DNA of 64,000 bases, taken from the NCBI GenBank assembly GCA_041649475.1, contig JBAZNA010000001.1:611308-675307 (forward strand). The letters are read 5' to 3'. Positions 3,243 through 64,000 of this stretch are shown piece after piece. The translations under genes and the position numbers were made by a program. Every line of letters begins with the position of its first letter. Within the stretch, counting starts at the first letter, position 1. Source of the stretch: Patescibacteria group bacterium. GTDB taxonomy: Bacteria > Patescibacteriota > Patescibacteriia > Magasanikbacterales > GWA2-37-8. The notes beneath the pieces are model-generated. The model was not told the DNA's origin and searched no databases. It worked only from the letters and a program-made list of their open reading frames with translations.

Positions 3243-4227
3243 ACGCCATTAATAATACCAAAAATACCAAAGCAAACAACTTTTGCTGGCTTTGAAACAA
3301 TAAAGTGGTAATGCCAAATATAAATGCTAGAGCATACATTAACAGCACGGATTGTTTATGACTCCAGCCGGCGTCCATCAGCCGAAAATGCAAATGCTCA
3401 CGATCACCTTTAAAAATTGATTGCTTGCGGCGGATGCGCGCTACAGCCACTCTGATTAAATCCAAAATCGGTATAGCCATAACCAGTAATGCAGTGGCCA
3501 CTTTACCGCCGGAAATGATTGCCAAAATTCCCAAAATAAAACCGATAAACAAACTGCCACCTTCGCCTAAAAATATTTTAGCCGGATTAAAATTAAAAAT
3601 TAAAAACCCCAGACAACTGCCGGCAAAAATGATCGCCAGCAAGCCGACATTGGGCTGAAAAAATGTCTTGGTATTTGTTAAAAAGAAAATCATCAAAGCG
3701 CCGATAAAAACTATGCCTGTGGATAAGCCGTCTAGCCCGTCTAAAATTTTTGTCGTATACATCATGCCCATCAGCCACAAAAAAGCAAAAATACCGCCGA
3801 CTATCAAACCAAAATTAATAATGCCGCCGAATGGGTTGGTAATTTTTTCCAAGCCCACTCCGCCGATGACAGCCACTAGCGCCGCCAAGGCAGTAATCAG
3901 TAACCGAAACTGCGGACTTAATTGTTTGGCATCATCAACCGCGCCCATGATAATTAAAATCAAACCGGCAGCCGCGATCCAAATCAATTTATTTTTAAAA
4001 ATTTCAATGCCGTAAATCGGGTTTAATAATAAAAACCCAACCACCAAAGAAAAAGAAATAAAAATGGCCACACCCCCCAAAAGCGGAGTTGGCCCAAAAT
4101 GTTTTTTTCGCTGTTGATCCGGCACATCCACAATTTGAAAACGCAAAGCCAATCGCCTGACGACGATGGTAAACAAAATTGATGACGCTAACGCGGCTAA
4201 AAAATATATCAAGTAAGTATAAAACAT
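3220..4227 (-). CDS. Glycosyltransferase family 4 polyprenyl-phosphate HexNAc-1-phosphate transferase (WecA/TagO/MraY family)
   Basis: Polytopic membrane protein with a DDxxQ motif and C-terminal GDREHLHFRLM, which resembles WecA HIHHRL more than MraY HHHFE. Confidence 0.7.
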   Translation of the reverse strand: MFYTYLIYFLAALASSILFTIVVRRLALRFQIVDVPDQQRKKHFGPTPLLGGVAIFISFSLVVGFLLLNPIYGIEIFKNKLIWIAAAGLILIIMGAVDDAKQLSPQFRLLITALAALVAVIGGVGLEKITNPFGGIINFGLIVGGIFAFLWLMGMMYTTKILDGLDGLSTGIVFIGALMIFFLTNTKTFFQPNVGLLAIIFAGSCLGFLIFNFNPAKIFLGEGGSLFIGFILGILAIISGGKVATALLVMAIPILDLIRVAVARIRRKQSIFKGDREHLHFRLMDAGWSHKQSVLLMYALAFIFGITTLLFQSQQKLFALVFLVLLMAYVTIKTS

Positions 4228-4229
4228 AA

Positions 4230-6959
4230 CTATTCCACGCGAATATTCCCGCCTTCGCCAATGACTACAGTATCTCTCCTTTTCAGTTTTCCGGCAAGCA
4301 ATAAATCAGCCAGCTTGTTTTCCACTCTCTCCTGTAAAACACGGCGCATGGGCCTGGCGCCAAACTCCGGATCAAAACCGGCTTCGGCCAAATAACTGAT
4401 GGCCCCATCTTCAACTTTCATTTGCACGCCTTTGACTTCCAATTCTTTAACAATTCTCTGTAACATCAATCCGGCCACTTTCTGTATCGCTTCTTTATCC
4501 AGCGGTTTGAATAATATTATGCCGTCAAAACGATTTAAAAATTCCGGCCGGAAATATTGTTTTAATTCCCCGTGCAACAATCTTTCTTTTATCGCTTCCT
4601 GTGATAAACCGGCGCGCATTTGTTCTGACACATAACTTGTGCCGGCATTGGAGGTGGCAATCAAAATTATATTGGTAAAATCAACCGCCCGGCCGGTGCT
4701 GTCTGACAGGCGCCCGTCATCCATCACCTGTAAAAACAAATTTAAAATATCCGGGTCGGCTTTTTCAATTTCATCTAAAAGCAAAAGCGCAAACGGATGG
4801 CGGCGCACTGATTCCGTCAAAATACCGCTGCCTTTTTGTCCGGCCGCGCCGATAAGCCGCGACAGACCGGATTTTTCCTGGTATTCACTCATATCCAAAC
4901 GGATCATGCGATCTTCGCCGCCAAAATATACTTCGGCAATGGTTTTTGCCAGTTCGGTTTTGCCGACGCCGGTGGGGCCGAGAAATAAAAAGTTGGCGAT
5001 TGGTCTTTTGGCGGAACGGATTTCGGCGCGGGCGCGGCGCAAAGAACTGGCCACCGCATCAACGCCTTCGTCCTGGCCGATTACCCGCTTGTGCATTTCT
5101 GCTTCCAGATTTAATAACTTGGTTGACTCGTCACTTGATACAGTGGTAAGCGGGATTTTTGTTTTTTCCGCAATCACGGCCGCCACTTCTTCTCCGGTCA
5201 CCAAAGTGTTGGCACCTTTTTTGTTATGAGCAAAACTGGCCGCTTCAGTCATTATCTCCAAGGCGCTGCCCGGCAGATATATTTCGTGGATAAATTTGGC
5301 GGAAAACTGCGCTGCCTTTTCAATCGCGTCATAAGAAAAGAAAACATTTTGTTTGTATTCCGCCTCCCCTACTTTTGATTCCAAAACCTGAATCGCTTGG
5401 TTGACATCCATCTCCGGCACATCAATTTTTGTAAACACGTTGCCCATAGTTGAATTGGCAATGTGTTTGGCAAAATCCTCATTAGTGGTGGTGGCAACGG
5501 TTAAAAACCGGCCGCTGGTTAAAAATTCCGCCAAAGTGTCGGCGACATCCAAACTACCCTCTTGCCCGCCGGCAGACACACCTATCAGTTCATGAATATT
5601 GTGGATAAACAAAATCACATTGCGGGCGCGAGAAATTTCATGCATAATATTTCGCAATCTATCAACCGCTCCGGCCGGGTCTGTACCACCCAACAATGCG
5701 GACACGCTTAAGCGCACCATGCGCTTGTCTTTGAGGCGATCCGGCACATCATCAGCCACCATGCTTTGAGCAACCCCTTCCACAATTGATCTTTTACCCA
5801 CGCCATGATCACCAACCAGCAAAACATTATGCTGACCGCCCTCAACCACCCGGTATATTTCTTCAATTTCTTTTACTCGCGCCACGCAGGGATTTAAATG
5901 TCCGAATTGCGCGAGTAAAGTTAAGTCGTCACTGAATTGATTTAAATAGGGAGTGGCCAAGGCGGTCATGGCTTTGTCCATGCCATATTTTGACCGATGC
6001 GACGCGGCCCGGGCAAATTTTACGTATTGGCGATGCAGTCGCTCCCGAATTCGCGCCCACTCAATCACATTGGCCAATTTTTGATTATTAATATCTAAAG
6101 CAAACATTATTTCCTGGATTTCCGGCGACTCTTTGACCGCGCAAATTAAAAGCTCGGTTACGCTCACATATTCCTGGTGAGCGTTATAGGCCTCTTCATA
6201 GGCCTGAAAAATTATTTGTTGGAAATCGGCCGACAGAACCGGCGCTGATTTGATTTTTTCTTCAGTTAATTCCAATTTACTGATTTGTTCTTCAAACACG
6301 CTGGCCGGAATGCCCAAACGGATAAAAATATTGCCGATGCGATTAAATTTTAACAGGGCCAAAAACAAATCAATCGGCCCGACTTCTTTTTTCCCGTATT
6401 TATCCGCCAATTTATACGCACTACCCAGGGCAGACATGGCCTCGGCAGTAAAGGTCTCAGTAATATTCAATCGTTTTTTCCACGGCACGCGCTTGATCTG
6501 GTCCCAGACATTTATATTTAAGCCCTCATCTTTTTCCGGCTGTTTATCAAACTCATACTCAAATCTTTCCACCATGCCCGTAAATTCGCCTTGTTTAATA
6601 ACGCGATACCATAAATACAATAATCCGATGACGCCGAGATAAAATAAATATGAAAAAACCATTTGCCCGGATTTATACACTCCAAATCCGACCCAGATCC
6701 AACAAGTTAGAGTAAAAACCAAAGCCGTAATCACCCGGATTTTATTAAGTATTCGCCTGCCTCTTTGTAAAGCAATGTTATAACGCGTGAGCGGATAATT
6801 CCAATACAGCCATTTACTTCGTAAATAAACACCCATCCGCGTTTCAGCGCGCTTGTTATTGGTTAAAATATTCAGTGGTGGAGATTTTTGAAAATCCATA
6901 TTCAGGTCAGGCGCCAAAAGGCAATTTAATAGAAAAAGGATGGAGAAAACCGTAGACAA
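4230..6959 (-). CDS. ClpA/ClpC-like two-domain AAA+ chaperone with N-terminal membrane-anchor extension and degenerate D1 ATPase motifs
   Basis: Clp_N repeats are present. D1 P-loop is GDHGVGKRS (consensus GEPGVGKT) and the D1 Walker B position reads FIHN instead of FIDE. D2 has intact Walker A GPTGVGKT and Walker B LLLLDEIEKA, plus sensor-2 GARP.R. There is no long ClpB-type M-domain. The N-terminal ~130 aa hold two hydrophobic helices. Start codon is uncertain (TTG at 6959, ATG at 6899 or 6829). Confidence 0.8.
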   Translation of the reverse strand: MSTVFSILFLLNCLLAPDLNMDFQKSPPLNILTNNKRAETRMGVYLRSKWLYWNYPLTRYNIALQRGRRILNKIRVITALVFTLTCWIWVGFGVYKSGQMVFSYLFYLGVIGLLYLWYRVIKQGEFTGMVERFEYEFDKQPEKDEGLNINVWDQIKRVPWKKRLNITETFTAEAMSALGSAYKLADKYGKKEVGPIDLFLALLKFNRIGNIFIRLGIPASVFEEQISKLELTEEKIKSAPVLSADFQQIIFQAYEEAYNAHQEYVSVTELLICAVKESPEIQEIMFALDINNQKLANVIEWARIRERLHRQYVKFARAASHRSKYGMDKAMTALATPYLNQFSDDLTLLAQFGHLNPCVARVKEIEEIYRVVEGGQHNVLLVGDHGVGKRSIVEGVAQSMVADDVPDRLKDKRMVRLSVSALLGGTDPAGAVDRLRNIMHEISRARNVILFIHNIHELIGVSAGGQEGSLDVADTLAEFLTSGRFLTVATTTNEDFAKHIANSTMGNVFTKIDVPEMDVNQAIQVLESKVGEAEYKQNVFFSYDAIEKAAQFSAKFIHEIYLPGSALEIMTEAASFAHNKKGANTLVTGEEVAAVIAEKTKIPLTTVSSDESTKLLNLEAEMHKRVIGQDEGVDAVASSLRRARAEIRSAKRPIANFLFLGPTGVGKTELAKTIAEVYFGGEDRMIRLDMSEYQEKSGLSRLIGAAGQKGSGILTESVRRHPFALLLLDEIEKADPDILNLFLQVMDDGRLSDSTGRAVDFTNIILIATSNAGTSYVSEQMRAGLSQEAIKERLLHGELKQYFRPEFLNRFDGIILFKPLDKEAIQKVAGLMLQRIVKELEVKGVQMKVEDGAISYLAEAGFDPEFGARPMRRVLQERVENKLADLLLAGKLKRRDTVVIGEGGNIRVE

Positions 6960-7281: not shown

Positions 7282-7303
7282 ACAACAGTATTATACCACA
7301 CTT

Positions 7304-10300
7304 TTACCTCATCATCTCCACAATCTTCGCCCGGGTCTTCGGTCCGAAGATGCCGTAGCCGTAAATGGAGGGGCTGGTGATTTTGTATTTAAGCTGGAAT
7401 CTCTGCACGGCTTTTTTGGTGGCAGAATCGAAATAGCCGGTGATTTTAGCTTCCGGATAGATGGCTTTGTTCTGGGCGAGGATGGTTTGGAGGACTTTGA
7501 CGTCTGTGCCGGATGAACCCAGTTGCAGGCTTCTGGTAAAAAGGTACTTGGGTGAGGAGGTGGGCAGTTGGTAAGTTTTGGTGAGATAGCCTCTGGTTAT
7601 GGTATCAAACCGGCCAATGGTGGTGGAAGCGATAGTGTTGGCGGTTTGATAGTTCTTTACTGCATTTTTGGTTAAAGGGCCATAGTAACCGGTTTTCAGC
7701 TTCTGGGGATAGATGCCGGGTATTTCAGAGAGGATGTTTTGCAATATTTTGACATCATAGCCGATGTTTCCGACATAGAGATTTCTGCCAAAGACGGTGG
7801 ATAAGATAAGCTTGGAGAGATCAGATAAAACCGAGGTAACTACAGTGATTGGGGTGGAGGTGGTGGTTGTGAGATTGGTGTTGCTGTTATTGTTGTTTTG
7901 CTGATTGGTTGAAGTGGAAAAAAGGTTAAACAAAGTGGAGGTGGAGAGGGAGGAAGTGGAGAGAACAGCCCCCGACCCCGACGAAATTGGAAACACCACG
8001 CTGGGACCGCCGCCGCCGTTTTTATGAATAGTGACCGGAATAGAGACAATGGCGATGCCTTCATAACCGGAGTCAGAGCTGGAAGCGGTGTTAGAGATAG
8101 TGACATTGTGATTGCCGGTAAAGGTACTGCCATTGGCGGCCATGGTGACGGTTTGAGCTGTATACCAGGTGGTGGAGGTGAAGGTTAAGGTGGAGGGATA
8201 AAAGACCATCTGGGTGCTGGTGGGAGCGGAGACAGTGATAATGACACTAGCAGAGGGCTGTGCGGCCAAAACAATGCTGAAGGTGTCGGTCATGCCGTCT
8301 TCCCAGACATTGGTGCTGGCTTTCTGGGAGACGGTGACGCCGGCGCCGGTGGTGTGGGTGTTGAGGAGGATGGATAGAGAACCGGTGAAATCTACCACAG
8401 CCAGATCGGGTTTAGAATCTTTATTAAGATCATCAGCAGTCACCCAATATACCTGACCGCCTATGGCATACGTTGTGGCTGAACCAAAGGTGCCGTTGCC
8501 TAAACCTAAAAGAACAGAAACAGAGCCATTCCCGCCGCTTCCTATATTGGCCACAGCTAAATCTTCATTACCGTCTTCATTAAAATCTTCCGAGGCTATA
8601 CCCGTCGGGGATGTGCCAACCGTATAATTTGTCGCCGAACCAAAGGTGCCATTGCCGTTGTTTAAAAGAATGGAAACGGTGGTACCAGGGTTTGAAGAAT
8701 CATAAAGAGTATTGTTATTGGCCACAGCTAAATCAAAGTAGCCGTCTCCATTAAAATCAGTTGTAGCCGTGTAAAATGGACCAGCACCAACAGTATAAGG
8801 TGTGGCCGCGCCAAAAGTGCCGTTGCCGTTGCCTAAAAGCACAGAGACGGTACTGCCCATACCACTAGGCGCAATCAAATCAATTTTACCATCAGAATTA
8901 AGATCAGCGGCTGAAACCGTAACAATTCCCATGCCAACCGTATAATTTGTCGCCGAACCAAAGGTGCCATTGCCGTTGTTTAATAAAACATAAACATCTG
9001 TACCTACGAAATCTCCTTCTATCAGATCGGATTTATTATCTCCATTAACATCAGCGGTAGTTACCCAAAGCCCCCCAGACGCAGCACCATAAGGAGTCAA
9101 ATCTCTGAATGTGCCGTCACCATTACCAAAAACAACAGAAACAGTCCCTGCCGTATAATTGGCAAAAGCCAAATCAAGGTGGCCGTCAGAATTAAAGTCA
9201 GAGACAGCCATACCACCGACATAAGTTTCCATGGGTACACTACCTAATGCGGAGAACGAGCCGTCACCATTGCCAAGGACAACAGTAAGGGTGCCTGTTA
9301 ATAAACTACCAACTACCAGATCTGTGTTTCCATCTTCATTAAAATCAGCGGCCACAGTATGAACAGGATATGAATCAACATCATAAGCAACCGGATCGGC
9401 AAATAAAGAACTTGAAAATAGTCCTCCCCTATTCCCAATTAAAATTGAATAACTGCTAGCAGAAGAATCTGCCACAACAATATCCGGCCAAAAATCTCCA
9501 CTGAAGTCAGTCGTTAATACAGTAAGGGGTTTGGTGCCAAGAGAATAGGCAGTGGAAGTGGCAAAGGTGCCAATACCGGTGCCAAAGAGAGTAGAGATGG
9601 TATTAGCGCTATAGTTGGAGGTGATAAGATCTCTTTTGCCGTCACCATTAAGGTCGTAATTGGTTATTGATCTGGGAGAGGCACCAACAGCGTAGGTGGT
9701 GTTTTGAAGGGTAAATGTTCCGGAACCTGAATTTAAAAGAATGGATACGGTATTAGAGGCGCTATTAGCAGTGACAATATCATATAAATTATCCGAATTG
9801 AAATCATAGGTAGTGATTGAGTAAGGAAAAGTTCCATCGCCAATATTGTAATTTACTGCCGCCGAAAAAGTGCCGGTAACAGAAGAATTTAAAAGAATAG
9901 AGACAGTACTGCTGCTAAAGTTGGCCACGGCCAAATCATTTTTATTGTCAGAATTAAAATCAGCGGAAATGATTGATATTGGCTTGCTGTTGACACTGTA
10001 GTTAGTGACTGATCCAAAAGTGCCGTTGCCAACTCCGAACAAGACAGAGACATTGTCTGAACCATAATTGGCGACGGCTAAATCGGTCTTGCCGTCAACA
10101 TTAAAGTCACCGGTAGTTACAGAATAGGGAGAAGAAGAAACAGTGTAATTAGTGGCTGTGCCAAAAGTGCCGTTACCGACACCGAGGAGAATGGAGATGT
10201 TATCACTGCCGCTATTGGCCACGGCCAAATCCAGATAACTATCACTATTAAAATATCCTAAAACAATGGCTTTGGGGCTGGTGCTGACATTGTAGTTAAC

Positions 10301-13300
10301 GGCTGACCCAAAGGTGCCATCGCCAACTCCAAGAAGAATAGAGACAATGTTGCTTGAACCTTTGGAGATGGCCAAATCCTGATAGCCGTCGCCGTTAAAA
10401 TCTCCATAAACCGTGGAAGTGGTAGTGCCACTGGTGTCATTGTCGGTGATGGTAGCGGTGACAGAAGAAACGGAGATGTTGTTATACATTACATCTGTAC
10501 TGGTGGCAGTATGAGTAATGGCGCTGGTATGATTTCCTTCTACCAAAGCATCATCTATAGCCGAAGCCATGACGGTTTGAGGAGTGTTCCAATTGGAGGA
10601 GGTAAAAGTCAGACGAGCTAAACTGGTGGTAACCTGGGTAGTGGAGGCGGTGACGGAAATATTGACATTAGCCGTGGGTTGGGAAGTAAGAACCACAGTA
10701 TAAGTATCCGTCAGGCCATTTTCGGATATATTGGTTGAACCGCCGGATTGGGTGAGAGTGACACCGGCAGTGTCATTATCAGTGTAGGTGCCTATAATAC
10801 TTTGCGTAATGAAACCTTCAAAACGGGAATCAGTGCTGGAAACAGAATGGGCAATGGTGGCAAAACGCCTTCCGGTTGCCACACTATCATCTGATGCTGT
10901 TATAGTTACTGTCTGGGGCGTATCCCAATTAGCGGAAGTAAAAGTAAGAGATGACACATCTGTTGAAATATATGAACTTATAGGGCTTACATGCACAATC
11001 ACATTGGCGGTTGGCTGACCATCAAGCACCACACTGTAAGTATCTGCTCCGCCTTCATTTATAACAGTTGATCCGCCTGATTCTGCAATCGTTACAGAAG
11101 ATGAAGTATAGGAATTAAATAATATATTAACAAGAGGATCTCCGTATCTTTCCGAAGCGGCCGCCAAATCAACCTTACCATCATGATTAAAATCAGCCGC
11201 AGTTAAAGGACCGTGATACAGGGCATAACTTGGACCACTATACGTCTTAACAAAATAAGATGTTGGGGGTGCGAAGCTCCCATTGCCATTATTTAATAAT
11301 ACATTGACTTTGCTTGAGGGAACGGCGAGATCATTTACTCCATCATTATTAAAATCAGCCGCCACCAATGAATAAAGCGCGGTAGATGTTACAGTGTAAT
11401 TTACCGAGGCCGAAAAGGTCCCGGTTGGCGTTCCATTGAGAAAAACCGCAATATAACTTAAAGAGCCGTTTGTTACGGTAGAGGCCGCCAAATCAATCTT
11501 TCCGTCATTATTTAAATCAGAAGATGTTATGTTGCGTGGGTAATAAGAGCCACTCACTGGAATACTTATACCCGACTGGAAAGTACCGTCGCCTATGCCC
11601 AGCAAAACAGTCACATTAGTACTTGAATAATTTGCAACAGCCAAATCAGTAAAACCATCTCCGTTAAAATCACCCGCAGTTATTGAATAAGGACTGGAAC
11701 TCGCGCTATAACTTACCGCGGCATTAAAGGTACCGTCACCTACACCTAAGAACACAGATACATTATTACTGGTCTTATTGGCTGTGGCCAAATCTTGTTT
11801 ATTATCTCCGTTAAAATCAGCGGCTGTTAAAGAACGGGGGTATGTGCCGGCACCATAGTTTGAAGCCGCACCAAAAGTTCCATCTCCCACGCCTAAAAGC
11901 ACAGAAACATTATTACTGTCATTATTGGCAGATGCTAAATCAATGTTATTATCTCCGTTAAAATCAGCGCTGGCCACCGAGCTTGGGCCGGTGCCTACCG
12001 CAAAGCTTGTTTTTAAACCAAAGGTGCCTGTGGCGGTACTAAGCAACACGGAAACCGTATTACTTCCATGATTGGCAACGGCTAAATCAAAATTTCCATC
12101 ATCATTAAAGTCATCATTAATCAACTGCCGATCATTATAAAACAAGTACATGGGTAAATTTCCATCTTCCGGAACATAGTGCGGAAGCACAAAATTTCCG
12201 GATCCATAATTATATAAAACAGATACATTACCATAACTATAAGCTTGAGTCACAGCAACAGCCAAATCATTTTTCCCATCATTATCAAAGTCAGCGCGGG
12301 TTATAGCTGTAACTGGACCATACAACTGATACACGGTGGAAGATCCAAAGGTTCCGTCGCCGTTGCCGAACCTGGTATCAAACGAACCATTTTCGTTGCC
12401 AACCAACAAATCTTCCTCACTATCATCATTTAAATCTGCAACTAAAAGAGAGCCGTAATAACCCCATGAACCAACACTTATTGCTGAACCCATCAAATAA
12501 TCCGTAGAAGAGGCGAAAGTGCCGTCACCTGCTCCTAAAAGAATGGAAACTGTGTTACTAACAAAACTGGCCGCGGCTATATCCATTTTTCCGTCGTCAT
12601 TAAAATCATTAGTTTTTACATCTTTTGCATAAGGGTTGACTATAAAATAAGTTGATGAATTAAACGTGCCGTCTCCATTTCCCAAAAGAACAGCCACCGA
12701 ACTACTTGTATAAGTAGACACCACCAAATCAACCTTATTATCACCGTTAAAATCAGCTGTAGTCGCATAATACGGATTTCCTACCAGGGTATAATTTACA
12801 GCTGACTGGAAAGTGCCGTCGCCTCTATTCAATAAAACCGAAACCGAAGGAGTGACTTGGGTAAGGTTTGGCACCGCTATATCAGGATAGCCGTCATTAT
12901 TAAAATCGTCTGATACTAAATGCCAAGGATAAGTAACTACCGAATAATTGCTGGCCGCCAAAAAACTACCGTCTCCCCTGCCCAAAAAAATTGAAACATT
13001 GCCGGCACCTCTGTTAGCGGTGGCCAAGTCCATATACCCGTCTAAATTGAAGTCATCCGCGATAACCCCCGTTGTTCCCTCACCACTCTGTGAAGTCGAA
13101 GTTGCCAGAAAGGTACCATCCCCTTGATTTAAATAAATATGAAGAGTATCGGTATCATCAAAAGGAACGGCCACATCAATTTTCCCATCACCATTAAAAT
13201 CACCGCTGGCAATGGTGGTTATATAGCCGATCCCTGATCCGAGAGTAATATCATCCCTAGTTTTGAATACCTCCGCGGCTGCCCACACATACCCCACCGA

Positions 13301-13396
13301 TGCCAAAATTACCGCATACATAAAAATAGCCAAAAAAATGGCTGCGGCTTTTTGTTTTACATCTGTATAATCCTTAATCGGCTTAAAAGCAGTCAT
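7304..13396 (-). CDS. Giant cell-surface protein: signal-anchor, about 30 FG-GAP/VCBS repeats (integrin-alpha-like beta-propellers), three Ig/cadherin-like domains, Asn-rich linker, two C-terminal peptidoglycan-binding (PG_binding_1) domains
   Basis: 2030 aa. The repeat unit DFNxDGxxDLAVAN...VSVLLGxGDGTF recurs with a period of about 55 aa. Segments such as TVTITASDDSVATG resemble Ig/Calx-like modules. The C-terminus carries two LxxGxxGxDVKxLQxxL...GYFGxxTxxAVxxFQ peptidoglycan-binding modules. Confidence 0.85.
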   Translation of the reverse strand: MTAFKPIKDYTDVKQKAAAIFLAIFMYAVILASVGYVWAAAEVFKTRDDITLGSGIGYITTIASGDFNGDGKIDVAVPFDDTDTLHIYLNQGDGTFLATSTSQSGEGTTGVIADDFNLDGYMDLATANRGAGNVSIFLGRGDGSFLAASNYSVVTYPWHLVSDDFNNDGYPDIAVPNLTQVTPSVSVLLNRGDGTFQSAVNYTLVGNPYYATTADFNGDNKVDLVVSTYTSSSVAVLLGNGDGTFNSSTYFIVNPYAKDVKTNDFNDDGKMDIAAASFVSNTVSILLGAGDGTFASSTDYLMGSAISVGSWGYYGSLLVADLNDDSEEDLLVGNENGSFDTRFGNGDGTFGSSTVYQLYGPVTAITRADFDNDGKNDLAVAVTQAYSYGNVSVLYNYGSGNFVLPHYVPEDGNLPMYLFYNDRQLINDDFNDDGNFDLAVANHGSNTVSVLLSTATGTFGLKTSFAVGTGPSSVASADFNGDNNIDLASANNDSNNVSVLLGVGDGTFGAASNYGAGTYPRSLTAADFNGDNKQDLATANKTSNNVSVFLGVGDGTFNAAVSYSASSSPYSITAGDFNGDGFTDLAVANYSSTNVTVLLGIGDGTFQSGISIPVSGSYYPRNITSSDLNNDGKIDLAASTVTNGSLSYIAVFLNGTPTGTFSASVNYTVTSTALYSLVAADFNNDGVNDLAVPSSKVNVLLNNGNGSFAPPTSYFVKTYSGPSYALYHGPLTAADFNHDGKVDLAAASERYGDPLVNILFNSYTSSSVTIAESGGSTVINEGGADTYSVVLDGQPTANVIVHVSPISSYISTDVSSLTFTSANWDTPQTVTITASDDSVATGRRFATIAHSVSSTDSRFEGFITQSIIGTYTDNDTAGVTLTQSGGSTNISENGLTDTYTVVLTSQPTANVNISVTASTTQVTTSLARLTFTSSNWNTPQTVMASAIDDALVEGNHTSAITHTATSTDVMYNNISVSSVTATITDNDTSGTTTSTVYGDFNGDGYQDLAISKGSSNIVSILLGVGDGTFGSAVNYNVSTSPKAIVLGYFNSDSYLDLAVANSGSDNISILLGVGNGTFGTATNYTVSSSPYSVTTGDFNVDGKTDLAVANYGSDNVSVLFGVGNGTFGSVTNYSVNSKPISIISADFNSDNKNDLAVANFSSSTVSILLNSSVTGTFSAAVNYNIGDGTFPYSITTYDFNSDNLYDIVTANSASNTVSILLNSGSGTFTLQNTTYAVGASPRSITNYDLNGDGKRDLITSNYSANTISTLFGTGIGTFATSTAYSLGTKPLTVLTTDFSGDFWPDIVVADSSASSYSILIGNRGGLFSSSLFADPVAYDVDSYPVHTVAADFNEDGNTDLVVGSLLTGTLTVVLGNGDGSFSALGSVPMETYVGGMAVSDFNSDGHLDLAFANYTAGTVSVVFGNGDGTFRDLTPYGAASGGLWVTTADVNGDNKSDLIEGDFVGTDVYVLLNNGNGTFGSATNYTVGMGIVTVSAADLNSDGKIDLIAPSGMGSTVSVLLGNGNGTFGAATPYTVGAGPFYTATTDFNGDGYFDLAVANNNTLYDSSNPGTTVSILLNNGNGTFGSATNYTVGTSPTGIASEDFNEDGNEDLAVANIGSGGNGSVSVLLGLGNGTFGSATTYAIGGQVYWVTADDLNKDSKPDLAVVDFTGSLSILLNTHTTGAGVTVSQKASTNVWEDGMTDTFSIVLAAQPSASVIITVSAPTSTQMVFYPSTLTFTSTTWYTAQTVTMAANGSTFTGNHNVTISNTASSSDSGYEGIAIVSIPVTIHKNGGGGPSVVFPISSGSGAVLSTSSLSTSTLFNLFSTSTNQQNNNNSNTNLTTTTSTPITVVTSVLSDLSKLILSTVFGRNLYVGNIGYDVKILQNILSEIPGIYPQKLKTGYYGPLTKNAVKNYQTANTIASTTIGRFDTITRGYLTKTYQLPTSSPKYLFTRSLQLGSSGTDVKVLQTILAQNKAIYPEAKITGYFDSATKKAVQRFQLKYKITSPSIYGYGIFGPKTRAKIVEMMR

Positions 13397-13420
13397 AAAA
13401 GCTGCACTTTTATGTATATA

Positions 13421-13428
13421 TTATAGCA
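13421..13428 (-). promoter_or_regulatory. Putative extended -10 promoter element (TGcTATAAT) about 25 nt upstream of the giant surface-protein ATG
   Basis: Reverse complement of ATTATAGCACA gives TGTGCTATAAT. No convincing -35 was seen. Confidence 0.3.
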
Positions 13429-13505
13429 CAATTTTATCCACAAAAAAATCCCCTACTCTTGGGGAAATTATGTTAGGGAAGATTTTGCTAAATAAGATTT
13501 ATTCT

Positions 13506-13871
13506 CTACTGCTTTGCCACTGTCACATCCTTTATGCCGACACTCAAATACTTTATCCCGCCGGCCGCCACCATATCCATCTTTGCCAATCTTTCCTGTA
13601 TATTGCTTAGCGAACTATTTTCGGCGATTTGGATGTTGGTTTTTTCAATGTCCTGTTCCAGAGCCGCGGTTTGTGTTTCCAATTTGTGCAATTCATAGCC
13701 GCTGGTGGTTGAAGATGTAGTTTTAAATACATAAGCAGCACCAACAAGCACAATCACTCCCACAAAAACAAAACGAATCGTATTTCCATCAATCCATTTG
13801 GGCAAACTCAAAAATCGTAAAGCATTGATGAAATTATGATATTTGAATTGAATTTGCCTTTTAATAGTCAT
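13506..13871 (-). CDS. ftsL: FtsL-like cell-division membrane protein (septum formation initiator family)
   Basis: 121 aa with a single TM helix followed by a coiled coil. It sits immediately downstream of rsmH, as in the dcw cluster. Confidence 0.45.
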   Translation of the reverse strand: MTIKRQIQFKYHNFINALRFLSLPKWIDGNTIRFVFVGVIVLVGAAYVFKTTSSTTSGYELHKLETQTAALEQDIEKTNIQIAENSSLSNIQERLAKMDMVAAGGIKYLSVGIKDVTVAKQ

Positions 13872-14776
13872 AATTTTTCTATTATGCGTAGTTTCGCGCT
13901 TCTTGATTTGGGATTATTTTTTACCTCCTCACTTGTCGGCGCAATTGGTTTTTTATTAATTAATTTGGCTGTTTTTGCCCCCGCGAAATATTGTTTTACG
14001 ATTCTGTCTTCGAGCGAATGAAAACTGATTACTGCCAGTCGTCCGCCCGGAGCCAGAATTTCAATTGCTTGCGGCAATGTATTTTTTAAATTTTCCAGTT
14101 CATGATTGACTTCTATGCGCAAGGCCTGAAAGATCTTTGTGGCCGGGTGTATATCGCCTATTCGCGGCACATCCTTATCAGTGTGTAACTCTTGCCTATA
14201 AACCTCTAAAATCGTTTCCACCAGCTGGCCAACCTTTTCAAACGGAACTTGTTTTCTTTTTTCTTTTATGGCCTGGGCAATTTCCGCACTGAATTTTTCT
14301 TCTCCGTATAATTTGAAAATTTTATTTAAATCAACTTGACTGTAAGTGTTTAAAATTTCGGCGGCTGTCAGCGATCCGTTTTGTTTAATTTCATAGCGCA
14401 TGTCCAGCGGTTCATCCGGCAAATTGAAGCTCAATCCTCTGCCCCGCTCTTCAAACTGCGGCGTTGACCAGCCCAAATCCATTAAAATCCCGTTAACTTC
14501 AAAGAACTTATTTTCTTCAGCTATTTTTTTTAAATTTGTAAAATTGTCTCTGATTAAAATCGCCCGCTCTTGCCAACTGTATAAAAACCTTTTTGCCCGC
14601 AGAACCGCTTCAATATCCGCGTCTATTCCGAGCAATCTTCCGTTCGGCCCGATACGCTCCAAAATCGCTTCGCTGTGGCCCGCATCCCCTAAAGTACAAT
14701 CCACAATATTCGCCCCGGGCTTTAAAGCCAGTGCCTCAATCGCCTCCTTTAGTAATACGGGGACATGGCGGCTCAT
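13868..14776 (-). CDS. rsmH: 16S rRNA (cytosine1402-N4)-methyltransferase RsmH (likely true start at the internal ATG, MSRHVPVLL)
   Basis: Shows the N-terminal HVPVLL motif and the SAM-binding GxG DCTLG.GGHS-like motif. Ordered after mraZ on the minus strand. The ORF track extends it to 14908. Confidence 0.9.
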   Translation of the reverse strand: MSRHVPVLLKEAIEALALKPGANIVDCTLGDAGHSEAILERIGPNGRLLGIDADIEAVLRAKRFLYSWQERAILIRDNFTNLKKIAEENKFFEVNGILMDLGWSTPQFEERGRGLSFNLPDEPLDMRYEIKQNGSLTAAEILNTYSQVDLNKIFKLYGEEKFSAEIAQAIKEKRKQVPFEKVGQLVETILEVYRQELHTDKDVPRIGDIHPATKIFQALRIEVNHELENLKNTLPQAIEILAPGGRLAVISFHSLEDRIVKQYFAGAKTAKLINKKPIAPTSEEVKNNPKSRSAKLRIIEKL

Positions 14777-14789
14777 AATTTGGAAAAAA

Positions 14790-15221
14790 TTAAACTCCCA
14801 ACTCGGCCATTCGTTCGGCGATAGCGCCGCTTTCGGCTTCGGTTGTGCCTTTATACTTTGACCAGTTCTCCTGGTCCCAAATTTCCAATCGATTGTAAAG
14901 ACCGGCAATAACCACTGATTTTTTTAAACTTGCGAACTTTCTTAAATATTCCGGCAGGATCGCCCGGCCCTGCGAGTCAAGATCAACATCCATGGCTCCG
15001 GCCAGCATCAGGCGTGAAAACGCGCGGCTGTTGGCCTGGCTGATCGGGAGTGCGGCTAATTTTTCCGCCAACTTCGCCCATTCGGTTTTTGTATAAAGAA
15101 ATAAACAATTGTCTAACCCTCTGGTGACCACCGCGCCCTTTGCCAATTCACGTCTAAACTTGGCCGGTATTGCCAGCCGTCCTTTGTCATCAAGATTATG
15201 TGCATATTCTCCAATAAACAT
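14790..15221 (-). CDS. mraZ: Transcriptional regulator MraZ (true start likely MFIGEY)
   Basis: Duplicated MraZ/SpoVT-AbrB halves (DDKGRL..P and DSQGRI.LP). The ORF track extends it to 15278. Confidence 0.85.
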   Translation of the reverse strand: MFIGEYAHNLDDKGRLAIPAKFRRELAKGAVVTRGLDNCLFLYTKTEWAKLAEKLAALPISQANSRAFSRLMLAGAMDVDLDSQGRAILPEYLRKFASLKKSVVIAGLYNRLEIWDQENWSKYKGTTEAESGAIAERMAELGV

Positions 15222-15355
15222 ACCGGGCAATAAATTTTGTGGGATATGTTGTCCCCACTTTTTTCCACCTATTCCCATTTTACTCCACTACAAAACACAA
15301 GTCAACAATATCCACCAAAATTATACCGCTAAATTTTGGCTAAAATATAACAAAA

Positions 15356-15378
15356 CAGTCCCGACTTAGTCGGGACTG
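15356..15378. terminator. Hairpin CAGTCCCGAC-TTAG-TCGGGACTG downstream of the beta-CASP RNase gene
   Basis: Perfect 10-bp inverted repeat located between the RNase stop and the mraZ start region. Confidence 0.45.
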
Positions 15379-15401
15379 TGGATAAGTAACCAAATTTTTT
15401 G

Positions 15402-16757: not shown

Positions 16758-16839
16758 AGTTTGTGCATATCTTTACCTTTGAACTATCTTACATTAAAAA
16801 TCTATACAAATCAATATCTTTTTGTTATAATATTTCCAT

Positions 16840-25096: not shown

Positions 25097-25909
25097 CTAA
25101 AGTTTCTTCATTGTTATGTGTATGTTCGGAGATGGAATCCTAGAAAATATCACTGATTCCAAATATATCAAACTATTTACCAATTTTTTAATCACGCCAA
25201 TCCCCTTGCCGTCTAACTGCGAAAAATATTTTTCATTATTCATTTGCTCCACACCTTGTTTTTTTGCCGCCCTATCCATTAAATAAAAGGATAAAATTCC
25301 TACCCACTGTCCCAAAACATGCTCACTGTATCTTACCTTTGCTTTTTTAAACCCGGCCTCTGCCAATTTTTTTAAAAGCTCTTTACGGGAAAAATAATTT
25401 ATATGCCCGGCATATTTTTTTGTCAGATCTTTTTTTAAACCAAAATTTTCCAAACAATGCCAATAGGAAAGCCAGTCGCCTTCGCAGGGCACAAAACAAT
25501 AAAATACTCCGCCAGTTTTTAAAACCCTTTTAATTTCCGACAAAACCGCGTCCACGTCCTCAACATGCTCCAACACGTCATAAATCAGCACGGCTTCAAA
25601 AAAATTATCCGCGTAAGGCAATTTTGCGCTTTCGTTTAAAGCGTAAGTAACGCCGTCATTTTCTTTTTTAGCCAAACTTATCGCCGACTCACTGATATCA
25701 CAGCCGTAACATTCCAATTCCGGACGAAGTTTTTTTATCGTTCTGATAAACTGGCCGGCCCCGCAACCCAATTCCAAAACACTTCCGGCCGCCGGCACGC
25801 CGCGCAAAGCCCGCAAACTTTGCTTTAAGCGAAAACTGGTCGGCGAACTCCATTTTAAATTCGCCACACCCTGTCCCCAGACGGATTTTTCGTAATCAAA
25901 CATCTCCAT
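25097..25909 (-). CDS. Class I SAM-dependent methyltransferase
   Basis: Motif I LELGCGAG, motif II near DISE, and a post-I acidic region. Confidence 0.8.
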   Translation of the reverse strand: MEMFDYEKSVWGQGVANLKWSSPTSFRLKQSLRALRGVPAAGSVLELGCGAGQFIRTIKKLRPELECYGCDISESAISLAKKENDGVTYALNESAKLPYADNFFEAVLIYDVLEHVEDVDAVLSEIKRVLKTGGVFYCFVPCEGDWLSYWHCLENFGLKKDLTKKYAGHINYFSRKELLKKLAEAGFKKAKVRYSEHVLGQWVGILSFYLMDRAAKKQGVEQMNNEKYFSQLDGKGIGVIKKLVNSLIYLESVIFSRIPSPNIHITMKKL

Positions 25910-27005
25910 AAACAGCTTCTAGTTTTTCAACATGCGTATCCCAGCTATATTTTTCAATTATTTTTTTGCGGCCATTTTCGCCCATTTGTTTTTTGGTTTC
26001 CGCCGGCATGGCCAGCACCTGTAAAATTTTAGCGGCCAAATCATCGGCCGATCCTTTGGCAAATAAAAGTCCGTCAACCCCGTCGGTAATTCTGTTTCTG
26101 ATGGCCGGAATATCAGTGCCGACAACCGGCACTCCGCAGGACATAGCTTCAGAAACAACCATGCCGAATGATTCATAATCAGACGACAAAACAAAGCAAT
26201 CGGAAATATTATAATAATCAGCCAAAAGCTGACTGTTGGCGCAAGCGCCGACAAATCTCACTTGGGAATAAATGCCCAATTCATTCGCCATTTTTACATA
26301 TTTATCCAATTCATATCCCCCACCGACAACCACCAGCGCGATATTGGAGTCATTTATTTTTTTAATCGCTTCCAGCAAGAGGTCCAAGCGTTTGAGCGGA
26401 ATCGGATTGCCCACAAATGAAATAATTTTTTTACCGCTCAAATCCTGCAAATCAACTTCGGATAAATCAACGCTCATTGGTTTAAAAATTTTCGTATCAA
26501 CGCCGTTGGCAATCTCTGCCACATTTTCCGGTTTCACTTTTTTGGCATACTGCACGGTTTTAAAATAATCACTGTCAACCACAATGACTTTTTTCGCCCG
26601 GGAAAAAATAAACGGCGGCCAAACCAGATCATACATTTTTTGTAAAACGGATTTTATGCCGGTTGTTTGGGCATCCATGTGATAAGTGAGCACAAACGGC
26701 TTACGGCTGAAACAAAGCCATTCGGCGGCGCCATAAAACGGATAATGCAAGTGCACCAAATCAAATTCTTTTAAATGCCACGCTAATTGCGGGATTTCAC
26801 CGGCATCGCCGTATTTAAACAAAGCCGGAATCCGAACTACTGAAAATGAATTGATGGTATCATCATAAACCGTGTCCGGATATTTTAAAGTGAACACGGT
26901 CACATCGTGTCCTTTGTCGGACAACAAATCCGCCTCATGCCAACAGACACTGCCCATGCCGCCCAAATGCGGCGGAAAAGTTGAAACAATATGGGCGATT
27001 TTCAT
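25896..27005 (-). CDS. Glycosyltransferase family 4
   Basis: Two-domain GT-B fold with the E.FG...EAM..G.PVV signature. Confidence 0.85.
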   Translation of the reverse strand: MKIAHIVSTFPPHLGGMGSVCWHEADLLSDKGHDVTVFTLKYPDTVYDDTINSFSVVRIPALFKYGDAGEIPQLAWHLKEFDLVHLHYPFYGAAEWLCFSRKPFVLTYHMDAQTTGIKSVLQKMYDLVWPPFIFSRAKKVIVVDSDYFKTVQYAKKVKPENVAEIANGVDTKIFKPMSVDLSEVDLQDLSGKKIISFVGNPIPLKRLDLLLEAIKKINDSNIALVVVGGGYELDKYVKMANELGIYSQVRFVGACANSQLLADYYNISDCFVLSSDYESFGMVVSEAMSCGVPVVGTDIPAIRNRITDGVDGLLFAKGSADDLAAKILQVLAMPAETKKQMGENGRKKIIEKYSWDTHVEKLEAVYGDV

Positions 27006-27014
27006 ACTTTATAT

Positions 27015-27350
27015 TTATACTTTATCTTTGGTTTTTTCCTCAAGAGCGTTTTGTCTTGTCAGTTTGGTGATATTCCTGTTCATTTGTTCTATTTTTATCA
27101 TCAGGCGAAAAATTACGAAGAAAAGCAGAGTGAGCGCGACATAAACTACCAAATCGGCGCCGCGGCCGATGCCGACCAATTTTGCCAAATAAGCGGCTGA
27201 ATTGGGGAGCAGAACCACCACGCCGGCGGCAAGCCAAAACAACACCCAGACCGACAAACCGCGCCAGCTTAATTCACCGGCCTGATAACGGCTGATTACT
27301 TTAATAATGGCGAAGATGAAAAAAATGATTAAAAATACTTGGATAAGCAT
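27015..27350 (-). CDS. DUF2304 small membrane protein (GT2 partner)
   Basis: 111 aa with 3 TM helices. It lies immediately downstream of the GT2 gene, which is the usual DUF2304 context. Confidence 0.55.
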   Translation of the reverse strand: MLIQVFLIIFFIFAIIKVISRYQAGELSWRGLSVWVLFWLAAGVVVLLPNSAAYLAKLVGIGRGADLVVYVALTLLFFVIFRLMIKIEQMNRNITKLTRQNALEEKTKDKV

Positions 27351-27351
27351 A

Positions 27352-28014
27352 TTATTTTAATAAACGGGCTTTAAAAAGATCCCATAATATTTTTACACCA
27401 CCAGCGGGTCCTTGTCCATAACCGTGGTAAGTCACCCGCACGGGAAATTCCCTAAAAGTCAGTCCGGCTTTTTTTATTTGTTTAACAATCTCCGAATTAT
27501 GCGCCATGCGATCCTGGGTAATTTTTATTTTTTCCAGAGCTTTTCTTGATAATACACGAAAACCATTGTGAACATCCGAGAGCTTTACGCCTGTAAAAAT
27601 TTTATTAATCGCCCGTGCAACCGGAAAGATAATATATTTTTTTGACCACGGCATCTGCGAGCGCCCGTCTAAAAATCTTGATCCGAAAATAACGTCAACA
27701 TTATTTTTATTCATCGTCTCCAGCGCCGGACTTATATCAGCCGGATCAAACTGCCCGTCAGCGTCAAAATGCACGACCGCCTCCGCGCCGCGACTTATGG
27801 CAAACTCGTCGCCGGTTTGTAGGGCCGCACCCTGTCCCCTGTTTATTTTATGTTTTAAGGCGTAGACGCCGGCAGCCGTCGCCGCTTGAAAAGTTTGGTC
27901 GGCTGACCCGTCATCAACAACTACGATATTTTTAAACCCATGATTAAAAAGGCCGCTGATTACGCGGCCGATATTTTTTTCTTCATTGTAGGCCGGAATA
28001 ACTATAAAAACCAT
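27352..28014 (-). CDS. Glycosyltransferase family 2 (dolichyl/polyprenyl-phosphate sugar synthase-like)
   Basis: N-terminal IVIPAYNEE motif, plus VVDDGS.D.T and DAD motifs. Confidence 0.8.
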   Translation of the reverse strand: MVFIVIPAYNEEKNIGRVISGLFNHGFKNIVVVDDGSADQTFQAATAAGVYALKHKINRGQGAALQTGDEFAISRGAEAVVHFDADGQFDPADISPALETMNKNNVDVIFGSRFLDGRSQMPWSKKYIIFPVARAINKIFTGVKLSDVHNGFRVLSRKALEKIKITQDRMAHNSEIVKQIKKAGLTFREFPVRVTYHGYGQGPAGGVKILWDLFKARLLK

Positions 28015-28029
28015 AACCGGTAATTGTGT

Positions 28030-29052: not shown

Positions 29053-29112
29053 AAATATCTAAATTATATATAAGCGATAAGTATTTTATCATTTTTAGCT
29101 AAAATTTGCAAT

Positions 29113-30519: not shown

Positions 30520-30543
30520 ATTTGGCTTTAATTATTATACCAC

Positions 30544-52691: not shown

Positions 52692-52726
52692 CCCTGACAG
52701 GACCACACAACTGGAAGGAGAAGGCC

Positions 52727-63936: not shown

Positions 63937-64000
63937 GAAGTTATTATAGCAAAACCCTACTTGAGAATAAAGACCTTGTCGCCAACTTTAACTTTCTGCG

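Follow-up and report, generated by a model that had tools for sequence, protein, structure and literature searches.

A 2030-residue protein encoded in a 64,000-nucleotide stretch of Patescibacteria (CPR) DNA, referred to here as the window, combines four predicted FG-GAP propellers with three Ig-type modules and a peptidoglycan-binding tail, and is on balance probably a Sec-exported, Ca2+-dependent surface adhesin attached to its own cell wall. Its gene occupies 7304..13396 on the minus strand (stop codon at 7304-7306) as an intact open reading frame with an ATG start, as the initial annotation had described it. The mature protein is calculated at approximately 206 kDa with a pI of 4.1 and contains no cysteines, and its acidic body (pI 4.1) is set against a basic C-terminal tail (pI 9.9). 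Codon usage is native (r 0.85, compared with 0.19 for a clearly foreign island), and the NCBI name of the protein is "FG-GAP-like repeat-containing protein".

Misassembly or repeat collapse of this reading frame is unlikely, since the 28 repeat units have diverged, the homolog P0003 is colinear with the protein, and an identical 2030-residue protein is present in both the ENA and NCBI records. The idea that collapsed or chimeric repeats generated the frame draws on the repetitive nature of a gene recovered in a short-read metagenome assembly (contig name k141_...), yet it is extremely improbable in view of the nucleotide identity among the units (mean 51%, maximum 69%), a longest exact DNA repeat inside the gene of 51 nt, shorter than the 141-nt k-mer inferred from the contig name, the agreement of the two database records, and a perfect 14+14 architecture shared with an independently assembled homolog.

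Repeats, modules and terminal regions

Pfam searches recovered FG-GAP_3 (PF13517; E 9e-159, 516.7 bits against a cutoff of 26.9, in 27 stretches), FG-GAP (PF01839; E 3e-96, 314.5 bits against a cutoff of 22.1) and PG_binding_1, all of which the initial annotation had anticipated, and the protein can be assigned by sequence to the FG-GAP/FG-GAP_3 (VCBS) repeat proteins. Motif parsing resolves 28 repeats of approximately 49 residues, 14 of them at residues 66-745 and 14 at residues 999-1666, so that the earlier estimate of about 30 repeats is lowered slightly while the proposed set of about four 7-bladed propellers stands. The Ca2+-loop motif D-[FLV]-[NDS]-x-D-x-x-x-D is intact in 27 of the 28, and one repeat in the second block carries a degenerate YFNSDSYLD motif; these D-x-[DN]-x-D-x-x-x-D loops would be expected to bind Ca2+.

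The first block (block A, residues 46-766; 11099..13261, minus strand), in which each repeat has a D-x-N-x-D-x-x-x-D loop, is supported by Pfam, motif parsing, AF2 and Foldseek, and the second (block B, residues 991-1685; 8342..10426, minus strand) by Pfam and motif parsing. The AF2 model of block A (pLDDT 85.8) is all-beta, with about 54 strands arranged in 14 four-stranded units; its confidence is low in the loop that links repeats 7 and 8. Foldseek matches it to tandem and multiple 7-bladed propellers, namely DDB1/SF3B3 and the tandem propellers of Utp21, in agreement with the fold expected earlier. Block A is thus predicted to form two tandem beta-propellers, and block B, the part of the protein best conserved in P0003, would form two more. 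The repeats accordingly appear in multiples of seven that are predicted to fold as 7-bladed propellers, an assignment based on the repeat count and the model matches rather than on blades counted from coordinates. FG-GAP propellers are also known in enzymes and nonadhesive proteins, an observation that counts against an adhesin reading.

Within block B, an exact 51-nt repeat was found, with one copy in blade 26 (8614..8664, minus strand, encoding LLNNGNGTFGSATNYTVG) and the other 318 nt (106 codons) away in blade 24 (8932..8982, minus strand); the pair extends to 88% identity over 73 nt. Near-perfect repeats of about 50 nt had been proposed to drive variation in repeat number, and recombination between the copies would delete 106 residues, about two blades. 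The repeat itself is real, but such variation is unsupported, because the units are old and have diverged, the copies span approximately two blades, and the 14+14 blade number is kept in P0003 at 44% identity.

Three modules of about 110 residues each separate and follow the propeller blocks. Modules 1 and 2 (residues 767-877 and 878-990; 10427..11098, minus strand) lie between the blocks, and module 3 (residues 1686-1793; 8018..8341, minus strand), which belongs to their Calx-beta-like family, shares the DNA/protein motif family D8 with them and has 47-48% identity to the modules of P0003, lies after block B. The AF2 model of modules 1-2 reaches a pLDDT of 95.6, their best fold matches in Foldseek include NCX1 CBD12 and CBD1, and acidic residues are conserved at E20, D76, D95 and D112/D114, the last forming a DND motif at the module junction. 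Modules 1 and 2 are therefore best described, at the level of the model, as tandem Calx-beta-like Ig-type beta-sandwiches. Identity to Calx-beta domains is 13-20%, and the scores of PapD-like/ASH and pilin folds are just as high. Sequence searches of the modules against Pfam and the PDB gave no match, the Pfam Calx-beta model (PF03160) matched none of the three even at E<=10, and a PDB profile search returned 3us9 alone (E 0.024). The annotation as three Ig/cadherin-like modules holds for their number and Ig-type fold, and cadherin identity was rejected, as neither a Pfam cadherin-family match nor a cadherin among the best fold matches was obtained. Giant proteins commonly use this module as an extender repeat; it is found in 15,253 representative proteins, in up to 59 copies, and its family has no Pfam model.

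The C-terminal part had been annotated as an Asn-rich linker with two PG_binding_1 modules, and both elements were recovered. The linker (residues 1794-1872; 7781..8017, minus strand) is a Ser/Thr-rich low-complexity segment with an Asn run, its core being NQQNNNNSNTN; P0003 has two Cys-containing domains in its place. The tandem PG_binding_1 domains (PF01471; residues 1873-2030; 7307..7780, minus strand) are detected in two stretches (E 4e-17, 62.6 bits against a cutoff of 23, the best at residues 1962-2024), match the N-terminal peptidoglycan-binding region of SleB (E 6e-8), and have as homologs small PG_binding_1 proteins, one of them from Nomurabacteria. By its sequence, the tail would hold the protein noncovalently on the cell's own peptidoglycan. 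Sortase anchoring as an LPXTG surface protein was ruled out, since the C-terminus (...GPKTRAKIVEMMR) contains neither an LPXTG motif nor a hydrophobic segment.

At the other end, residues 1-40 (13277..13396, minus strand) comprise a basic n-region, a hydrophobic segment of 22-25 residues, which is the only hydrophobic window of the protein, and an AAA|EV site fitting signal peptidase I; the N-terminus of P0003 is built likewise, its site reading VEA|A. Judged from hydrophobicity and this shared layout, the segment probably directs export, and together with the PG_binding_1 tail it agrees with the earlier prediction of a secreted, envelope-associated protein.

Genomic setting and expression signals

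Upstream of the giant gene and on the same strand lie mraZ (14790-15278; MraZ E 4e-42), rsmH (13868-14776; RsmH E 3e-99) and a 121-residue frame (13506-13871) that ends 109 bp from it. The similarity of this frame to FtsL is below threshold (NF053549 E 2.3e-9, 37 bits against a cutoff of 55; TIGR02209 17.7 bits against 42.45; Pfam FtsL_2 E 0.041), and its position after rsmH, single transmembrane segment and coiled-coil layout fit FtsL, which makes "FtsL-like" a fair name. These three genes are context and stand outside the functional unit of the giant gene.

The annotated order of mraZ, rsmH and an ftsL-like gene followed by the giant gene is correct, whereas the suggestion that the giant gene stands in place of ftsI and the mur genes was rejected, as the syntenic relatives lack both at this locus. 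In four of them (L003, L004, L006 and L007) the order is mraZ-rsmH-ftsL-orf124-clpC-wecA-like, which is the ancestral order of the clade, without the giant gene; more distant CPR genomes keep ftsL-ftsI-mur, and the content of the ftsL-orf124 junction varies among the genomes compared. The break of the dcw cluster after ftsL is older in this clade than the giant gene, which is a later insertion, in this lineage only, at the variable junction flanked by the terminator of ftsL and the promoter of orf124. The gene thus holds no conserved position in the cluster, being absent from the locus in the four relatives, and its homolog P0003 is encoded between tgt and DUF4015.

A terminator-like hairpin (13441..13466, minus strand) with a 5-bp GC stem, a 7-nt loop and a T7 run directly follows the ftsL-like gene, and L006 and L003 have equivalent hairpins in the corresponding position. 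Between this hairpin and the giant gene, the initial annotation had recognized a TGcTATAAT element, which is indeed present as the extended -10 TGTGCTATAAT (13420..13430, minus strand), 23 nt upstream of the ATG. The window contains eight occurrences of the motif TGNTATAAT where 2.7 would be expected, a count reached in none of 100 shuffles. No Shine-Dalgarno motif precedes the gene, and SD-like motifs precede only 5 of the 45 open reading frames in the window. On the distal side, the extended -10 TGTGGTATAAT of orf124 (7290..7300, minus strand) lies 8 nt before the orf124 ATG, is of the leaderless type and marks the edge of the insertion; in L006, whose junction is uninterrupted, the same element precedes the orf124 ATG by 7 nt. 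From these motifs, transcription of the giant gene from its own extended -10 promoter is proposed. Taken alone, the hairpin is weak (z -1.05), so that read-through from the mraZ operon is possible, which counts against stand-alone transcription.

A divisome accessory protein, co-transcribed with mraZ-rsmH-ftsL, acting at the septum and replacing ftsI/mur, would account for the same-strand neighbourhood at 109 bp, the weak terminator and the peptidoglycan-binding domains. It is very improbable, considering that all four syntenic relatives have the junction without the gene, that the P0003 gene lies far from dcw genes, that a hairpin and a separate promoter intervene, that the dcw break came first, and that the Glycos_transf_4 gene further downstream has a higher score for WecA-like than for MraY. 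The position beside the dcw genes is incidental and does not link the protein functionally to cell division.

Proposed surface role and alternative topologies

The initial annotation had proposed a wall-tethered adhesin in a reduced-genome organism; the organism does belong to the Patescibacteria, with contigs of 633-963 kb, and encodes MurJ, a MurA-type enzyme and BacA for wall synthesis, and the adhesin role may plausibly be inferred. In the arrangement favoured here, the N-terminal signal would export the protein through Sec, the basic PG_binding_1 pair would grip the cell's own peptidoglycan, and the Ser/Thr/Asn linker with one Calx-beta-like module would serve as a stalk. The part projecting outward would consist of two acidic heads containing two 7-bladed FG-GAP propellers each, with modules 1 and 2 as the spacer that links them and that Ca2+ probably stiffens. 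Since the integrin-type Ca2+ loop is intact in nearly all blades, the protein should need Ca2+ to fold and to stay rigid. Through its four propeller faces it could bind a partner or host cell, or other material outside the cell, in a multivalent manner, and the gene would be transcribed from its own promoter.

A Ca2+-dependent surface lattice, in which the protein is an S-layer-like coat anchored by its peptidoglycan-binding tail, is rather unlikely. Such a coat would suit the acidic, cysteine-free composition with a basic wall-binding tail, the near-complete set of Ca2+ loops and the consensus promoter, and S-layers reportedly occur on CPR cells. A coat gene would be expected to be more widespread than one that is missing from the locus in four close relatives and has one full-length homolog, an argument weakened by the variability of S-layer genes themselves. 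Additionally, heads on a stalk resemble adhesins more than lattice formers, and the mass falls in the highest part of the S-layer protein size range.

The length of the N-terminal hydrophobic segment bears on the orientation of the protein. It exceeds that of the other secreted proteins of the window, an S8 protease (approximately 16 residues) and a small secreted protein (approximately 15 residues), and the N-terminus may therefore stay in the membrane; an uncleaved signal counts against the topology of the adhesin reading. A reversed topology, with an uncleaved N-terminal anchor and the distal PG_binding_1 pair gripping the wall of a host bacterium or, as a membrane-to-wall strut, the cell's own wall, would follow from this length and from the placement of the peptidoglycan-binding domains opposite the anchor, and would suit a group whose cultivated members are all described as episymbionts in published abstracts. 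It is unlikely, as an AxA-type small-residue site follows the segment both here and in P0003, as in cleaved signals, as monoderm surface proteins usually carry their wall-binding modules at the C-terminus and direct the passenger outward, and as many candidate hosts have no exposed peptidoglycan. A more speculative and distinctly improbable elaboration is a grappling tether of an episymbiotic cell, whose N-terminus sits in the symbiont membrane while the PG_binding_1 pair locks onto peptidoglycan exposed on a bacterial host, with the four propellers and three spacers extending, by rough estimate, some tens of nanometres; this lineage would have gained it as a cassette of its own at a junction prone to recombination, and it would help set host range.

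If the adhesin reading is true, the protein is a candidate for partner attachment in one uncultivated lineage of Patescibacteria, its role probably being to stick to a partner cell, and its presence or absence among otherwise syntenic relatives could serve as a marker of specificity for a host or niche. The family of the modules, often present in dozens of copies per protein, would merit a family definition of its own.

Comparison with known systems

The gene adds an ordinary member to the very large, recognized class of FG-GAP surface proteins, with no bearing on cell division. At E<=1e-10 the protein matches more than 7,300 database entries, many of which span 2,100-3,400 residues, and the giant extracellular FG-GAP/VCBS proteins share its Ca2+-loop repeat of about 49 residues and tandem 7-bladed propellers. 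They differ in that, among the best 120 matches, only P0003 also carries PG_binding_1. This homolog, colinear over 1836 residues with 6% gaps, is the only full-length one found, and the layout of 14 blades, two modules, 14 blades, one module and a peptidoglycan-binding tail is found in just these two proteins.

Giant integrin-domain surface proteins have already been described in CPR. Vampirococcus lugosii encodes giant membrane proteins with integrin-type and fibronectin/Ig-type domains, proposed to function in host recognition and attachment (PMC8080830); by description, they are alike in the reduced-genome CPR setting, the very large predicted envelope protein and the integrin/Ig-type domains, whereas the present lineage is Parcubacteria/Magasanikbacteria-like and the term "peptidoglycan-binding" does not occur in that paper.

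The ectodomain of integrin alpha offers a structural likeness, with Ca2+-loop FG-GAP propeller heads on Ig-like beta-sandwich legs, and integrin alpha legs (4nen_A, 4mmx_A) are among the fold matches of the modules; a sequence search against solved integrins gave no match. The present protein has four propellers where integrin has one, lacks a beta subunit, and carries a PG_binding_1 wall anchor instead of a C-terminal transmembrane helix. Among Calx-beta domains (NCX1 CBD1/CBD2, Drosophila CALX, PF03160), NCX1 heads the Foldseek list and the conserved acidic residues likewise lie at module ends, while the modules described here would act as extracellular spacers and diverge in sequence as noted above.

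InlB with its GW modules, the CWB2 proteins of C. difficile and SLH S-layer proteins are exported by a Sec signal at the N-terminus, turn their passenger outward and end in basic wall-binding repeats. The giant protein would share this topology of monoderm proteins with noncovalent C-terminal wall-binding modules and, unlike sortase-anchored proteins, has no LPXTG/sortase signal; its anchor is PG_binding_1, a domain that is more often N-terminal and part of wall hydrolases, SleB being an example.

Domain organization and predicted fold of the giant protein

The giant gene is a single unbroken open reading frame on the minus strand (7304..13396), with an ATG start and 2030 codons. Pfam searches recovered FG-GAP_3 (E 9e-159, 27 stretches), FG-GAP (E 3e-96), and two PG_binding_1 domains at the C-terminus (E 4e-17), in agreement with the initial annotation, which had described a giant secreted-type protein carrying FG-GAP repeats and two PG_binding_1 domains. 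The NCBI record of an identical protein (MFA5062094.1, 'FG-GAP-like repeat-containing protein [Patescibacteria group bacterium]') bears an automatic name that is already correct, and the identical protein is also encoded on an ENA metagenome contig of 633,560 bp. The guess of a reduced-genome host is right; by RsmH (61-66% identity), the nearest species representatives are MAGs of the Parcubacteria group, Patescibacteria, and Magasanikiibacteriota. No further FG-GAP paralogs were found in the window.

The mature protein, of approximately 206 kDa, contains zero cysteine and combines a very acidic body (pI 4.1) with a basic tail (pI 9.9), the two PG_binding_1 domains being directly preceded by a linker (aa 1794-1872) that is rich in Ser/Thr and contains an Asn run. 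Its sole hydrophobic segment lies at aa 13-45, preceded by a basic n-region and ending in AAA|EV, and a matching layout ending in VEA|A is found at the N-terminus of P0003, the full-length homolog. Since the hydrophobic core, at 22-25 aa, exceeds in length those of two further secreted proteins from the window, both N-terminal cleavage and retention are possible.

Motif parsing identified 28 repeats in two groups of 14 (aa 66-745 and aa 999-1666), that is, four sets of seven, close to the approximately 30 FG-GAP/VCBS repeats and roughly four 7-bladed propellers first estimated. The integrin-type Ca2+ loop D-x-N-x-D-x-x-x-D is intact in 27 of them, with a degenerate motif in the repeat at aa 1048. 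Block A (aa 46-766), as modelled with AlphaFold2, is all-beta (mean pLDDT 85.8), with about 54 strands, corresponding to 14 four-stranded blades, and the principal loop of low confidence coincides exactly with the boundary between repeats 7 and 8. Foldseek aligned block A over its full length to the multi-propeller proteins DDB1, SF3B3, and CPSF160, and also to Utp21 with its tandem 7-bladed pair (4nsx, TMq 0.48); a phmmer search of block A against PDB sequences gave no match. On the basis of these models, the reading of each block as two predicted 7-bladed propellers is well supported.

Three modules of about 110 aa each, at aa 767-877 (module 1), aa 878-990 (module 2), and aa 1686-1793 (module 3), gave no match to Pfam or PDB sequences even at E<=10. 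The model of the tandem module pair (pLDDT 95.6) consists of two beta-sandwiches, for which Foldseek placed the tandem Calx-beta domains of NCX1 at or near the top (3us9, 8jp0, 8sgt), with further matches to PapD-like/ASH domains, pilins, intimin Ig domains, and integrin alpha legs. Additionally, a profile built from 49 module homologs matched 3us9 alone among PDB sequences (E 0.024). Acidic residues are conserved in the module alignment, including a DND motif at every module end; adhesins bind Ca2+ between tandem sandwiches at sites that may be of this type. Taken together, the modules appear to be Ig-like extenders of a Calx-beta-like type: of the three Ig/cadherin-like modules initially described, the three Ig-like units stand and the cadherin assignment does not, as sequence matches to cadherin are lacking and the predicted folds are Calx-beta-like. 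A Pfam Calx-beta identity was likewise ruled out for want of sequence matches. The modules (8018-8341 and 10427-11098; proteins P0268-P0417) also represent a large repeat family without a Pfam model, with matches in 15,253 cluster representatives at E<=0.001, the best-matching of them being giant proteins (1.1-7.9 kaa) that carry as many as 59 tandem copies. An exhaustive search with module 3 plus the tail for proteins of the same architecture was swamped by this module repeat and returned nothing on the tail.

At the DNA level, the near-perfect internal repeat of about 50 nt noticed at the outset is present as a 51-nt exact match (8614-8664 and 8932-8982) joining blades 24 and 26, and resembles a short tract of gene conversion. 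Among the 28 repeat units, nucleotide identity averages 51% and reaches at most 69%, without block structure, which indicates that the array is old. A crossover between the 51-nt copies would delete 106 aa, approximately two blades, and break the 7+7 geometry. P0003, only 44% identical, also has 14+14 blades, its extra 148 aa being two Cys-containing domains that replace the linker; blade number is therefore conserved, which argues against the suggestion that the internal repeats drive repeat-number variation. An assembly artefact is unlikely, since the diverged units and the equal blade count of P0003 both speak against collapse or misassembly.

Position of the giant gene relative to the dcw cluster

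Upstream on the same strand lie genes for MraZ (E 4e-42) and RsmH/MraW (E 3e-99), followed by a 121-aa ORF with specific but sub-threshold matches to FtsL models (NF053549, E 2e-9, 37 bits against 55), for which 'FtsL-like' is a fair name. The four closest genomes share the order RecJ-LepA-MurJ-orf232 and RNase J-MraZ-RsmH-FtsL-like-[ ]-orf124-ClpC-like-Glycos_transf_4-DUF192-L21-RecR, and at the bracketed ftsL-like/orf124 junction the giant gene is absent from all four (L003, L004, L006, and L007). The gap measures 78 bp in L006 and 127 bp in L007, both empty, 630 bp in L003, with a 131-aa membrane ORF (11388-11783), and 745 bp in L004, with a GC-rich fragment of about 700 bp holding overlapping spurious ORFs (11340-11950); in L010 (11329-13337) and L012 it holds CDP-alcohol phosphatidyltransferase and tgt genes. 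Within this clade, the ftsL/orf124 junction is a hotspot for insertions.

More distant Patescibacteria (L009, L013, and L014) retain the canonical ftsL-ftsI(PBP)-Mur ligase order, which indicates that the break of the dcw (division and cell wall) cluster after ftsL predates the giant gene. Judged from gene order, the giant gene was inserted later, as a lineage-specific event, at a junction of variable content. P0003, the only full-length homolog found (2178 aa, 44% identity over 1836 aa, with the same order of domains, modules and PG tail included), is encoded in a different CPR genome, flanked by tgt and a DUF4015 gene. A true dcw function is consequently unlikely: synteny rejects a functional tie, as four syntenic relatives lack the gene and the homolog is located elsewhere. 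Moreover, the downstream Glycos_transf_4 gene, considered as a candidate mraY, scores better as WecA-like (NCBIfam E 8e-38) than as MraY (E 3e-18), both below cutoff, so the cluster does not resume. The occurrence of tgt both at the junction in L010 and L012 and beside P0003 in L002 was set aside as coincidence, because the window contains no tgt and the two tgt genes share only 44% identity. A JGI metagenome scan for close relatives returned generic FG-GAP proteins only (22-46% segment identity), none with dcw genes or a PG tail.

Two further features of the neighbourhood were observed. In L005 (17650-20940, plus strand), the region after ftsL is rearranged, and an ORF of >1096 aa without a Pfam match runs off the contig end. 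A ClpC/ClpB-like double AAA+ ATPase (4230-6959, minus strand; L003 12218-14989; L004 12340-15135) conservedly adjoins orf124 and is always paired with this 112-124-aa membrane protein without a family match; in the relatives, it bears at its N-terminus a CxxC...CxxC motif resembling a zinc ribbon, with hydrophobic segments after it, and may be a membrane-anchored Clp ATPase.

Transcription signals and compositional origin

The -10 element proposed earlier is present as an exact extended -10, TGTGCTATAAT, 23 nt upstream of the ATG of the giant gene, and TGNTATAAT occurs at 8 sites in the window against 2.7 expected, a number that no shuffle reached. Past the ftsL-like stop, the minus strand reads a hairpin with a T7 run (13466-13441), 8 nt, the extended -10, the leader, and the ATG; past the giant-gene stop follow 3 nt, TGTGGTATAAT, 8 nt, and the ATG of orf124. 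In L006, the uninterrupted junction consists of terminator, 8 nt, TGTGGTATAAT, 7 nt, and ATG, from which it follows that the giant gene, together with its promoter, lies exactly between the original terminator and the original, leaderless-type promoter of orf124. The terminator-like hairpin is weak alone (z -1.05), so some read-through is possible, and since Shine-Dalgarno-like motifs precede only 5 of 45 ORFs, the absence of one at the giant gene is normal for this genome. The flanking 11-bp TGTG[C/G]TATAAT copies were considered as a target-site duplication and rejected; the element precedes other genes, including TGTGGTATAAT at 30534, and is more simply a local promoter consensus.

Elsewhere in the window, TGNTATAAT lies 6-8 nt before the ATG of orf124 (7290-7298), orf232 (16823-16831), and the 62677-63936 ORF (63943-63951), and 14 nt before an ATG at 30534-30542; such short distances suggest leaderless mRNAs. 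A nearly identical terminator hairpin, GTCCCGACTAAGTCGGGA(C/T), follows RNase J (15355-15379, minus strand) and, in L006, ftsL (3481-3500), the same terminator sequence thus being used at different junctions.

The giant gene has a GC content of 44.4% (43.7 ± 2.7% in the other genes of the window), a GC3 of 0.41 (against 0.47 ± 0.04), and a synonymous codon usage whose correlation with that of the remaining genome is r 0.85 (other long genes range over 0.78-0.97). On these native values, recent horizontal transfer from a distant donor was rejected; the gene is either a long-term resident or was gained from a related CPR lineage. By contrast, a separate 1.4-kb island (52050-53446, plus strand) with 58-67% GC between flanks of about 40%, GC3 of 0.86-0.90, and codon usage unrelated to that of the window's other genes (r 0.19) encodes a pyrE-like phosphoribosyltransferase and pyrF (OMP decarboxylase); these pyrimidine-synthesis genes appear to have been acquired recently by horizontal transfer from a high-GC donor.

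Proposed attachment role and comparison with known systems

The giant protein would be exported via the Sec pathway and kept on the cell's own wall by the basic PG_binding_1 pair; such a wall is expected from the presence of genes for MurJ, a MurA-type enzyme, and BacA. Together with module 3, the linker may form a stalk from which two double-propeller heads, separated by the two-module spacer, would point outward, with Ca2+ probably stabilising blades and module junctions and the propeller faces contacting a partner surface. A rival topology is reversed, with the N-terminus retained in the membrane, as the long hydrophobic core would permit, and the tail gripping either a host wall or the own wall; another rival is an S-layer-like coat protein. 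At 25097-31920, 12-18 kb from the giant gene, an envelope-glycan cluster encodes GT1/GT4 and GT2 glycosyltransferases, an NAD-dependent epimerase/dehydratase, a bacterial sugar transferase, and a methyltransferase, with a secreted S8 subtilase among them.

A literature search combining FG-GAP and Patescibacteria found no papers; giant integrin-domain envelope proteins have been described in Vampirococcus, also of the CPR, with a proposed role in host attachment (PMC8080830). Giant FG-GAP/VCBS proteins are very common, with >7,300 matches to the present protein at E<=1e-10, and it belongs to this recognised class. What is rarer is the PG_binding_1 anchor, found in one of its 120 best matches, and the 14-2-14-1-tail layout, an exact arrangement found in two proteins.
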